A program made the position numbers. From positions 800,001 to 864,000 of the forward strand of contig CM000433.1 in NCBI GenBank assembly GCA_000165345.1: a stretch of DNA of 64,000 bases, read 5' to 3'. Within the stretch, counting starts at the first letter, position 1, and the number at the start of each line of letters is the position of its first letter. This document shows positions 21,001-27,000 of this stretch, piece by piece.

Positions 21001-24000
21001 AATAAGAGTAGCTCCATGAGTAATAATAAAATAGCAATGTACATTTCTGCGGTCTCAATTATAAAATAACTAGGGCATTTGTATAGACAAGAATCAACTA
21101 TAAAGCAAGTTCATGGTATTTTCGTTGATAATTTTTTGGCGCCAAATATGTGTAAGGACAGATTGAGCGGTAATATTATGTACTATTACTAAGCCTTTAA
21201 TAACCAAGCAAAAGTAGCAGATAAAATGCTGCCTTTTCTCACCCTAGCAAGGAATTTGGGAGCCGGATCAGTAAGGGTGGGTTTGGTGAGTAATTTCTCT
21301 AAGGGTCAACTATTTTTTGTTGGAAAAAATCTGTTGAAAAATTTGGGTACAAGGGCTATATCAAGCAAGTCAAAGCCGACATCAGTTTGCGAAGAAGAGG
21401 AAAGAGCAATTTTGGAGGCAGAGGTTGCAAAGATTGGAGTTCTTCAGGAAAGAATTAAGACCCTTGAGAAGGATGCAAGTGGTTATATTCATAAAATAGA
21501 AGAATCTAAGGAAAAACTGTTACGTTCACTAGCAGAAAATGAGAATTTAAGACAAAGGCATAGGAAAGACTTAGAAGCAGCAAGAGAATACTCAATTTCA
21601 GGCTTTGCTAAAAGTCTTTTGGATGTCTCTGATAGCCTTTCCAGAGCCTTATTGTCCGTAGATATTGAAAATGTAGATAAAAATTCAATCAAAAGTTTAT
21701 ATAATGGAATTAGCATGACATATTCGTCATTAGAAAAGGTTTTTGAAGCACACGGTATTAAGAGATTCCAATCTTTAGGAAAACAATTTAATCCAAAAGA
21801 GCATGAAGCCGTATTTGAAGTTAAGGATACATCTAAGCCAAAAGGCCAAGTTTGTGAGGAGCTCTTGCCTGGGTACAAGATCCATGATAGAGTCCTCAGA
21901 GCTGCAAAGGTTGCTACCATTAAGAATTGATCAGTTTCTTCCCATTCTGTTGTTAATTATTTTCAAGCATTATTTTAAATTAATTTTTTTTTAATTTGAG
22001 TTGGCGCTGAAATTTATCATTTATTAATTAGCCTTGCGATTCTCAGAGGTAGACCAAATAAAATGTGAATATGAAAGTAAAGAAAAATGATATGGCCATT
22101 TTTAATGATAACTGCAGGAGCTAGTCTTGTAATTGCAAGAGGAACGCCTATATTAGCTAGGAGAGCTGGATTCTTTTCTCGGAATATGATCAGGCCTTTG
22201 GCAGGATCAACGGGGAAGTTTCCTTTAAAACTCAAGGGATTTGAGAACCCAATGAGTATTAGGGAGGCTTACAAGATATTGAATGTACCTCCGATTGCAT
22301 CGAAAGCGAGAGTTAGAGAAGCCCACAGACAGCTAATGCTAAGGAACCACCCAGATAATGGAGGCTCTAACTATGTTGCCTCCAAAGTTAATGAGGCAAA
22401 AGAATTAATTTGTGGGGATAAAGATTAATCACTAGTTGTAGGTTTAACATTTTCCGGGGAAACAAGTACTTTGCATTAGTTTGGCACAATTTACAGGGAA
22501 GGAGGATTTTTAGAATCTTGCACCTTAAAATTAATATAGTTATTGTTTTTAATTCATATATAATCTCACAATCCTTCAGTTTTAAATATTTGTTTTTAAT
22601 TTTATTTCAACATTCGCTCTTTTATTTAACTTATTTTTTTTTTTTTTTTTGGGGTTGCATCTTGAAAATTTGGGCGCCTGGATTTTGTAATAAACTAGAA
22701 TAAAAATTCAAAGCAAACTTTGTGAAATGCCAGGAAGCACATATATTGAAAAGATCAAAACACATTATGATACATTGGAATTAAAGAAAGATTGCTCTAA
22801 AGAGGATATATGTAGGGCGTATATGAGGCTTGCATTAGAATGGTATCCCGATGGAAATAGATCGGATACAGAACTAAAGGGTACAATGTTTAAAAAGATC
22901 TCAAATGCATACCAAATACTCTCAAATGACGAATTGAGACGCAAATATGATTCTAGCATTGATGAGCTCATCAAAAAAAACAGCTCTGAAATGAATCAGA
23001 ATTTAAATTTTGATCCATATGAAGTTTTTGAGAAATTTATGACAGAAGTACTGGCAGATAAAGAAAAGTATTATCAGTATTCTTCCCCATGTAATGGTGG
23101 ATTTTACATTCATTCAAATTCGGATTTTAACTCTGATTCTGATATTGAATTCGGATTGGATGGAGACGAAAAAGACGCCAATATTAATGATGATCTTTTC
23201 ACAGAAGATGAAGATATTGAATATTGTGATGATTATCATTATAGAAACACCTTTTAAATTATCCAAAATTAAACTTCAAACACACAAATGTATTTTTTGT
23301 CCTAAATTATACCAAATATCTTTATTTTTGTATGTATAATAAAGATCAGCTCAATATCCTCAATATAAGTGTAGGATAACTTGAAACCACATCTTTAAAG
23401 TATATGTTGGTAAAAAAACAAGAATTTATATAAACTGGTTAATTTGTAATTGGTAATAAGTTGATTAGAACTCAAACATAGTTCAAAGAATTCATATATT
23501 TACTCTTTCAACAAAAAACGGATGTTTGGGAATTTTCTATTACAAATACTTAGTAGATATTTATCGACAGCTTTAAAGCTAAAAGGAAAAAAATGATCAA
23601 TTTAATCAATTATTCAATGTTCAAAGAAATCTAGCTAGACTTTTATATTTGGAAGTTATCTATTTTTGACATTTTGGATAGATAATCTTCTTTATATAGC
23701 TGAACCTGATTAAATTTATGCTTTGGGTCATTTAATAGGTCACTTAAGGTAATTTCAGCAGCAACTTGTTGTACTTTTTGGCAGCATTGGATCTAAAAGT
23801 GGGAATAAAAAAAAAATCAATGAGTAAGTTGATGTCTTGTAATAATAGCGCAGATAGAAGATTTATCAACTTTTCAATTAATGTTCTTCCTCCAGCTAAA
23901 GAAAAAATTTCAGTAATGTGACTAGCCAGTCACTATGAGCGACTTACAATTTTATGAATTTGGATTTTCATGGAAAATGAAGATAAATAAGAATCGTAAG

Positions 24001-27000
24001 CAGTACCCTCCAATGTTGAAATCTGACTCTGTTCAATGATTCGATTCATATTATCCACCATTTTGCTTATACAATCATTCACAGTTTCCTTGCAGCGTGT
24101 CCTTGCACTCATTATTTATAATGTAATAATTTAGGGGGTAACTCAAATGGACAGCGCGCGCGGTAATGGCAAATTTTTTTTTAGAGAGAATGATTTATTG
24201 ATATATAGGATTTCATGAGCAAAGAGTAATTTTAAAAATAAAAATTAAAAAAAAAATTGAAATAGAAAAATTAGTTTGTGCTCATAATAGAGCGTAAATG
24301 GTGATAATATCTGAATAATTGATTAATTGAATTAAAGTAGTTTGTTGTGGAGGTAGAGTATGAGAGAAAATGGGTCCTAGAATTTGCCCTCAATGTTCTA
24401 GCGCTAGTATTGAAGTACACGAAGGAAGAGGAGAGACAATATGTACGAACTGTGGCACTGTTTTGGAGGAGAATACCATGGTTGAAGGCCTTCAGTTTAG
24501 TGAATGTTCCAATGGATCGATGCAAATGGTGGGACATTTTGTGCCTTCATCAGGTGTTAGAGGATTTGCAATGGTATATGGAAATAGAGAAAGCAGGGAG
24601 CACGTTCTACAGAGAGGTTATCATAATTTACAGAGAATTGCTGATCAACTACGTCTTTCTAGTAGTCATATAGAATCTGCTCAAAGAGTATTTCTGATGG
24701 CAGTTCAAAGAAGTTTTACAATAGGCAGGAACAATATGCACGTTGCATCTGCTTGCTTGTATGCGATATGTAGGAGAGAGAAGACGCCTCATATGCTTAT
24801 TGATTTTAGTGACGTTCTTCAGACTCCAGTAAAAGTTTTAGGACAAGTTTTTATGAAACTTTTGCGTTTACTTAGATTACATGTTCCAAACATTGATCCC
24901 TCAATGTTTATGGAGAGATTTGCAGCTCAAATGAAGTTAGGCGAAAAAACTCATGCCGTTGCAGCTACGGGTGTCAGAATTGTTCAAGCTCTAACAAGAA
25001 ATTGGATTACTACTGGAAGAAGACCAACTGGGTTATGTGGAGCAGCTCTACTTATTTCTGCAAGATATCACGGAATTCCTGTTAGTTCTTCAGAAATTGC
25101 TCAGATTGTAAGGATTTCTTCACCCACTTTATTGAAGAGACTTGCAGAGTTTAAACATACCTCTACAGCTCAGTTAACAGCAGATGAATTCGAAAATACA
25201 GATCTGCTCTCTCTTCCAATTGTTAGAGGGCCACCCTGTTTTGAGAAGAACCGCCTAAAGGATGAAGCAAATAAAGCTTTGGCAATTTCTAATGGTGAAG
25301 ATAAATTGGCCATTGAGGGAATAAATCCTAATATAGGTTTGGAATCGAATTATGACAAAGAAAATGAACCATTAGGTAATGATGAAGATAGAAGAAAGGA
25401 TGATCCAGAAGATGCTCAGGAAGAAGAGCAAGGCGATGAAGAGGAGGAAGAGTCTGAAACCATTGATGTTGAAGCTGATGATTTTGAGGGGCATAAGAAG
25501 AGCCTTAGTTTCCCTAAATTTTTAGGAGGAATAGAATTAGACATAAATCAAGATAAACTTTGTAATGATGAACCTACATCACAGGATATCACAACTATTG
25601 CTTCCAAACTAATTAATGCATTTGATAAGGCTAAGTGCGCCTCAGAGAATTCTCAATCAGGAACTTCGACATGTGCAGATTCAACTTCAGCAGAAGACCT
25701 AGTAATGGATCCTCTACACTTCTTGTTTAAAGATTTTGGAGATCCCCAAGTTGAAACTGAAGACAAGCAAACAGCAAAAGGAAGTATTCAGGAAGAAACT
25801 AGCATTGACAACCTAATTGAGCCTGTTAGTGGAAACAAATTAAATATTGCGAATTCGGATCTCTCCACTACAATTGGCAGTTCAGGGCTTGAAGACCGTG
25901 ATGATATCTCAAGTTCTGACGATCTGAGCGACATTAGTGATTCAGAAATTAATGATTTACTACTTGATGAGGATGAAAGAGAGGCAAAGAGGCTCCTTTG
26001 GGATGAAATTACAAAGGATACGCTTCCTCCATCGTGGCTTAGAAAGATAAACAAGGAGTCAATGAATTCGAATAATTTCCAACAAAGTGAAATTTTTGGA
26101 CTTTCAAACAATACAGCCAAAGATAATACCAACACTGGTCAGCCTAAGAAAAGAAAGACAGAACAATCGGAAAAGGAAAGTTCTAAGGCTCAGAAGGTTC
26201 AACCAGAAAATGCTATTGAAAGCGTGTTAATGGCGCTTCAAAAGGCTGGTCCAGGAGCGGCCAAACATGTTAACTCTGATACTTTAGCCAAACTGTTTAC
26301 TGTCTGCTAGGAGAGTAATAGTAGCAGGATATGGAACAATGTGGTAATTACTATATTAAAATGTGTTATTTTAGTTTAAACTATACACTCCTTAGGATTT
26401 TATCTAATGTTTTCTATTTTTTACATAAATTTTGCATGTATTAAGCATTGAATTGAATCTTGTTTGGCGCCCAAAGTTTTTTTTTGTGATGGTCAAAGTA
26501 AGACAAGTAGGTCGTCGCATCATTTTAAAGCTCACTCCATGGGATTAAGAGCTGTTGCTATAAAAGAGAAAATCTAGGTAAGATCGTATAATTTACTTTT
26601 GAATGAAAGATGAATGGACTAAAGGTTTGTAATAGTCAGAGGGAACTTGTGCAAAATAGTAAACGAATTTTTCATAGTAAAGATTCTCATTTAAGAAGTT
26701 ATCCAAATTTAGAGTGCATAACCACTGCATTTAGAAATTCTGTGATTTACCCTGAAACGGTAAATAACCCACCAGTTCCGCTTTTTGAACAATTTTGTAA
26801 AGCTGCAGTTTTATATTCAGATTTTTATCAATTTGCCTTGGGTGAAAACTTTGTTTGTAATTTGCTTAGAAATGATATTAAAAACAACTCTTCCCAAGCA
26901 ATGGAGGCTTGGAAAAGAGAATCATCTGATGCAAAGACAGTTGAGGAGTTTTTAAAGTCTCAAATTAGGATACATACTCTGGACAAAATTAGATCCAATC

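Follow-up and report, generated by a model that had tools for sequence, protein, structure and literature searches.

What, if anything, is encoded in the 1112 nt that separate the stop codon of a small DnaJ-domain gene (position 23257) from the start codon of BRF1 (position 24370) on chromosome 5 of Cryptosporidium parvum? We consider this question in a window of 64,000 nt (assembly GCA_000165345.1, contig CM000433.1, positions 800,001 to 864,000), in which all positions given here are counted and in which precomputed Pfam matches identify the flanking genes as encoding a 176-residue DnaJ-domain protein and a 646-residue BRF1. A first-pass annotation of the window had estimated the gap at 0.9 kb, shorter than the measured distance, and had placed within it a small two-exon gene. 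On the evidence of its sequence and conservation, this is a real two-exon, protein-coding gene, predicted to be expressed, and its 104-residue product is quite probably, judging from profile comparisons and a structural model, the Cryptosporidium orthologue of the Mediator head subunit Med22. It is also an already annotated, conserved and ordinary housekeeping gene, and what our analysis adds is confined to the choice between the labels Med22 and Med11 and to corrections of gene models in related species.

The gene occupies positions 23643-24112 on the minus strand, head-to-head with BRF1 and tail-to-tail with the DnaJ-domain gene, and the first-pass model of its structure proved exact to the base. 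Exon 1 (24112..23948, 165 nt) consists of the ATG at 24112, two codons downstream of an in-frame TAA, and 54 further codons; it specifies residues 1-55, which form helix 1 and the first half of helix 2 in the predicted protein, and it stops at a GTAAGT donor (23947-23942). The spliceosomal intron that follows (23947..23793, 155 nt, phase 0) ends in a pyrimidine tract and an AG at 23794-23793, and the CTTAC at 23828-23824 is a candidate branch point on the minus strand, whose counterpart in the alignment is CTAAC in both C. ubiquitum and chipmunk genotype I. Exon 2 (23792..23643) continues in phase for 49 codons, residues 56-104, taking in the rest of helix 2, an LLNDP motif and the C-terminal helix 3, and closes with TAA at 23645-23643. 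A chance origin of this two-exon arrangement is unlikely. We ran 1000 first-order Markov simulations of the 1112-nt gap and searched both strands for the longest ATG-initiated open reading frame (ORF) leading into GTAAGT, a pyrimidine-rich AG and an in-phase ORF; a model of any size appeared in 9% of them, the largest encoded 76 residues, and none of the 1000 yielded a comparable model of at least 80 residues, set against the 104 residues of the real gene.

The same architecture recurs throughout the genus. We compared eight loci, from C. parvum IOWA-ATCC, C. ubiquitum, C. xiaoi, C. ryanae, C. canis, chipmunk genotype I, C. felis and one Cryptosporidium recovered from a Logan assembly, and in every one of them exon 1 is exactly 165 nt long, GTAAGT follows codon 55 and an AG precedes the residues (I/V)QCCQ, with the GT-AG intron boundaries conserved. 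The intron itself varies from 89 to 182 nt, with lengths that leave all three remainders modulo 3, ranges in G+C content from 0.21 to 0.57, contains in-frame stops in most of the species and is barely alignable outside close relatives (identities to C. parvum of 0.83, 0.72, 0.54 and 0.44). Codon periodicity and Ka/Ks between species, which the first-pass annotation had named as a check on the gene, bear it out. Pairwise differences in the spliced coding sequence fall at codon positions 1, 2 and 3 in the numbers 388, 329 and 1349, a strong third-position bias that is present in exon 1 (138/145/702) and in exon 2 (250/184/647), and the ratio of nonsynonymous to synonymous substitution rates (dN/dS) is 0.02-0.12 among Cryptosporidium species where dS is unsaturated. 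Between distant species the synonymous sites are saturated and the proteins are still 63-90% identical. Because of this codon periodicity, the low dN/dS and the conserved splice sites, we regard the distal acceptor as functional and the gene as protein-coding, with both exons under purifying selection in the eight species as far as these alignments indicate.

The C. parvum sequence can nevertheless be read in a second way, which the first-pass annotation had already raised as an alternative. A good pyrimidine-AG site lies 52 nt past the donor (AG 23897-23896, exon start 23895, minus strand), and splicing to it would remove a 52-nt intron and give a 60-residue product ending in LEEEH; were this protein, or the 59-residue ORF that results from intron retention, the main product, the 104-residue form would be minor. 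The near site and its 60-residue product exist as described, but the acceptor that is conserved is the distal one, at the end of the long intron. Among the compared species only C. parvum and chipmunk genotype I have a pyrimidine-AG at the corresponding place, and the frames downstream of it are unrelated and unconserved, whereas purifying selection acts on exon 2 in all eight and the distal acceptor is the one used by all curated annotations. Yeast, moreover, does not survive the loss of the C-terminal Med22 helix (PMC3152362), and a 60-residue product would be without half of helix 2 and the whole of helix 3, elements that are essential in yeast Med22. We therefore consider it extremely improbable that a short form is the main product. 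Two further readings of the intron were rejected: a three-exon model using the 23897 acceptor and a middle exon has no in-phase donor, and the region it requires is unalignable or absent in species with introns of 89-102 nt; against an intron-hosted small nucleolar RNA or structured element, the GTGACT..AGTCAC hairpin near the donor is not kept past close relatives, and a search of 23200-24400 against Rfam gave no match with E up to 1.

Measured against public annotation, the two-exon gene is not new, and the first-pass description of it as previously uncalled is true only against the ORF track. From end to end, the 104-residue product is identical (100%) to C. parvum QOY41877.1 (CPATCC_0026290), to CPHLJ_5g3535 and to two more entries, the identical protein having been deposited from four C. 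parvum assemblies, and the annotated gene span in CP044418.1 (C. parvum IOWA-ATCC), a sequence to which the window is 99.9% identical, is 470 nt and corresponds to 23643-24112. Near-identical proteins of C. hominis (for example CUV06425.1), C. meleagridis and C. tyzzeri belong to the same 90% cluster, and orthologues from six further species, including C. ubiquitum, chipmunk genotype I, C. canis, C. xiaoi/bovis and C. ryanae, form separate clusters. No accession of the 2004 type occurs among the cluster members listed, and to judge from this list the first C. parvum annotation probably overlooked the gene. According to the authors of the IOWA-ATCC annotation, all of the introns in it (100%) have RNA-seq support (PMC8744675), and since the annotation of CP044418.1 contains the intron of this gene, their statement lends indirect support to the splice junction. 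In an earlier re-annotation, cDNA and RNA-seq evidence led to the addition of 74 genes and 451 introns (PMC4637869); the supplement of that work contains cgd5_3530 and cgd5_3540 and lacks 3535, and a full-text literature search for cgd5_3535 found nothing.

Public models of the gene in other Cryptosporidium assemblies depart from the conserved structure in several ways. The C. felis product of 83 residues (fetched locus 1501-1814) and one C. canis product of 120 residues (OJ253_1423) derive from models that read into the intron, and the acceptor of the 102-residue C. ryanae model (fetched locus 1501-1917) is an AG located 6 nt downstream of the conserved one. Entries for C. felis and C. tyzzeri (TRY49637.1) are titled "DnaJ domain containing protein", a name apparently carried over from the neighbouring gene. 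The faulty gene models in these assemblies can be corrected from the conserved splice sites, and the locus as a whole is a case in which a reading of nucleotide sequence alone recovered the correct two-exon model of a gene that is invisible to ORF tracks.

The second question that the locus raises is what the protein is. The Pfam family Med22 (PF06179; Srb6 / Surf5) is the best family for five of six Cryptosporidium orthologues, with a best E-value of 1.7e-5. Outside the genus, an exhaustive HMMER profile search of 1.8e9 representative proteins returned two relatives only, Colpodella angusta EP00388_P030636 (E 5.6e-6) and Vitrella brassicaformis CEM30962.1 (E 8.7e-4), and Med22 is again the best Pfam family for both (5e-5, 24 bits, for Colpodella; 1.4e-4 for Vitrella). 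When a profile built from the Cryptosporidium, Colpodella and Vitrella sequences was searched against the PDB, its best matches were three mouse and human MED22 sequences (E 1e-5 to 3e-5), ahead of a following match at E 0.11. Direct comparison by hhalign with human MED22 (the query sequence being identical to 7emf_V) gave E 4.7e-5 over 72 columns with a probability of 68%, and the alignments take in the turn after helix 2, LLNDP in Cryptosporidium and ILNDFP in human.

A structural comparison points the same way. The AlphaFold2 (AF2) model of the C. parvum protein consists of three helices, at residues 3-31, 38-75 and 78-100, arranged as a hairpin of helices 1 and 2 followed by a C-terminal helix. 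The top Foldseek match to it is 7emf_V, MED22, with a template-modelling score (TM) of 0.58, and yeast Med22 (4v1o_Z) is also listed, though this fold by itself is not specific. The mammalian proteins (7emf chain V; 6w1s chain Q) share the three-helix layout, and their alignment with the Cryptosporidium protein covers the first two helices and the LND(F)P turn in 72-88 columns at E 1e-5 to 5e-5. Identity is only about 15-18%, and human MED22 differs in its length, with 200 residues including a long C-terminal tail, whereas the Cryptosporidium protein has 104 residues and is without a tail.

Several results weigh against the assignment to Med22. Pfam Med22 gives the C. parvum protein 20.7 bits (E 5e-4), which is short of the curated gathering cut-off of 26 bits, as are the scores seen for all the orthologues, though that cut-off is an operational threshold and no biological feature. 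A profile made from Cryptosporidium sequences only finds no relative in the PDB, just noise at E 0.24 or worse, and the single Vitrella and Colpodella sequences give nothing significant there either, the sole match of Colpodella being MED22 at E 0.81. Against yeast Med22, hhalign gives no signal, nor does it against yeast Med11 (E 0.32), so that the yeast comparisons, in which neither protein is detected, are uninformative. The AF2 model was built from 6 sequences and is of moderate confidence, with a predicted local distance difference test score (pLDDT) of 73. Finally, UniRef carries the label "subunit 11" on the C. parvum, C. hominis, C. ubiquitum and C. canis proteins. A comparative study found Med11 and Med22 to be the core Mediator subunits hardest to detect outside opisthokonts (PMC2475620), a finding that fits the weak similarity of the Cryptosporidium protein.

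The UniRef label raises the possibility that the protein is Med11, the structural partner of Med22. The two subunits have a common bundle fold and similar sizes (PMC3152362), and Med11 (7emf chain K; 4gwp chain A) offers the same helical-hairpin block at a size similar to that of the Cryptosporidium protein, whose expected binding partner it is and whose UniRef name it shares. Sequence comparison nevertheless detects no similarity to Med11. At E up to 10, Pfam Med11 matches none of the orthologues and neither the Colpodella nor the Vitrella homologue, and at the same limit no Med11 chain appears among the PDB matches of the extended profile, which finds the three MED22 sequences at about 1e-5. 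By hhalign, human MED11 (query identical to 7emf_K) aligns over 10 columns at E 0.22 with a probability of 0.3%, and the yeast protein fares no better. Furthermore, UniRef, the source of the competing name, itself labels the Vitrella homologue Med22. Identity with Med11 thus appears unlikely to us. The automated UniRef naming is in any case inconsistent, with Cryptosporidium orthologues called subunit 11 and the Vitrella homologue subunit 22, and the evidence favours 22.

A more skeptical interpretation would remove the protein from Mediator altogether, making it a small helical protein restricted to Cryptosporidium and the chrompodellids whose likeness to Med22 reflects convergent helical-hairpin or coiled-coil composition. 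We judge this to be slightly less likely even than identity with Med11. One family emerges from independent methods (Pfam, the profile search of the PDB, hhalign, and the top Foldseek ranks); the aligned region is no short coiled stretch but takes in the two helices together with the conserved LND(F)P turn; and four orders of magnitude in E-value separate the MED22 sequences from the next PDB match.

The relatives outside the genus add to the case for Med22. The Vitrella and Colpodella proteins, of 109 and 101 residues, are of the same size as the Cryptosporidium protein and 21-26% identical to it. The Vitrella gene (fetched locus 1501-2002) has two introns, the second of which begins with GTAAGT, and lies in phase 0 directly after codon 59, the codon aligned with Ile55 of Cryptosporidium and thus the site of the single Cryptosporidium intron; the shared codon and phase speak for orthology and for an intron that predates the genus. 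The Vitrella gene differs in its extra upstream intron and in its neighbour, which is ADA2-like and not BRF1 as in Cryptosporidium. Among apicomplexans, the predicted Med22 of Plasmodium falciparum (PF3D7_1469800) was recovered by mass spectrometry together with PfMed31 (PMC9088918), which indicates that a Mediator head with Med22 exists in the phylum. The profile searches gave no match linking Plasmodium Med22 to the Cryptosporidium protein, and no direct comparison of the two sequences was made.

If the protein is Med22, its role can be sketched from well-studied systems. In yeast, helical hairpins of Med11 and Med22 form a four-helix bundle, the C-terminal helices of both subunits, which are essential, bind the Med17 C-terminal domain, and a conserved surface patch stabilizes the pre-initiation complex (PMC3152362). 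By homology with yeast and human Med22, helices 1 and 2 of the Cryptosporidium protein would form a hairpin that pairs with the hairpin of Med11 in a four-helix bundle, and the C-terminal helix 3 would anchor the Med11/Med22 pair, within the Mediator head, to the Med17 C-terminal domain; the bundle may in turn help to stabilize the RNA polymerase II pre-initiation complex. The analysis shows the structure of the gene, its conservation, purifying selection on it and the likeness of its product to Med22 in sequence and fold; the partners Med11 and Med17, the part played in the pre-initiation complex and the use of the E2F-like site described below are inferred.

Transcription of Med22 probably starts from a short divergent promoter common to BRF1, the two ATGs being 257 nt apart. 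The first-pass annotation had noted an element about 40 bp before the ATG, and indeed GCGCGCGCGG, an E2F-like GC-core element, lies at 24154-24163 in plus-strand reading, 42-51 nt upstream of it. The sequence GCGCGCGC, which falls in the interval separating the two ATGs, occurs once in the window and in none of 100 shuffles. A GC core ([C/G]GCGC[G/C], or GGCGGG on the complementary strand) is found upstream of the ATG in seven of the eight species, mostly at 45-55 nt; it lies further upstream in C. xiaoi and C. ryanae, and C. ubiquitum has the near-match CGCGTGCGCC in its place. An E2F-like motif is the most abundant class of upstream motif described in C. parvum (PMC3734150), and the element at this locus matches its core, a resemblance which suggests that E2F may bind and act here. 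A second conserved promoter block, distinct from the E2F-like element, is present at about 24203-24216 (minus strand CATGAAATCCTA) and takes the form CAT(G/T)AAATCCTA in the six species closest to C. parvum.

The opposite, convergent side of Med22 holds conserved noncoding sequence of its own. A 30-nt block at 23385-23414 (minus-strand TTTACCAACATATACTTTAAAGATGTGGTT), in the intergenic region between Med22 and the DnaJ-domain gene, shows 0-1 mismatches in C. parvum, C. ubiquitum, chipmunk genotype I, C. canis and the Logan species, and is near-invariant although synonymous sites are saturated between some of its carriers; it has 6 mismatches in C. felis and is absent from C. xiaoi and C. ryanae, which are also without the 176-residue DnaJ gene. 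Read in the sense of Med22, the block resembles a TACTAAC-type branch point followed by a TTTAAAG acceptor. It has no Rfam match and no covarying structure, and RNAalifold applied to the conserved downstream blocks on both strands gave weak energies and no compensatory pairs. The block could be an undescribed regulatory or RNA element. Two other conserved blocks flank it: TTAGCTTTAAAGCTGTCGATAAATA at 23558-23582, containing the palindrome AGCTTTAAAGCT and lying 61-85 nt past the Med22 stop, and an inverted repeat GATCTTTATT...AATAAAGAT at 23318-23347, with AATAAA on both strands, 61-90 nt past the DnaJ stop. These may be the 3'-end processing signals of the two convergent genes. The DnaJ-domain gene itself (22727-23257), situated between Med22 and a Pam16-like gene, is uncalled in C. 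xiaoi and C. ryanae, where synteny is otherwise kept across BRF1, Med22, Pam16-like and GrpE.

Taken with the intron position seen in Vitrella, the comparisons incline us, with a confidence somewhat below that which we attach to the Med22 assignment, to the view that the proteins labeled "subunit 11" in UniRef represent a minimal Med22 of about 104 residues, common to Cryptosporidium and the chrompodellids Vitrella and Colpodella and retaining an ancestral intron position, and that the true Med11 of Cryptosporidium is not yet recognized. Outside curation the locus is of small consequence; the conflict between the automated name Med11 and the evidence for Med22 affects how the reduced transcription machinery of Cryptosporidium is reconstructed.

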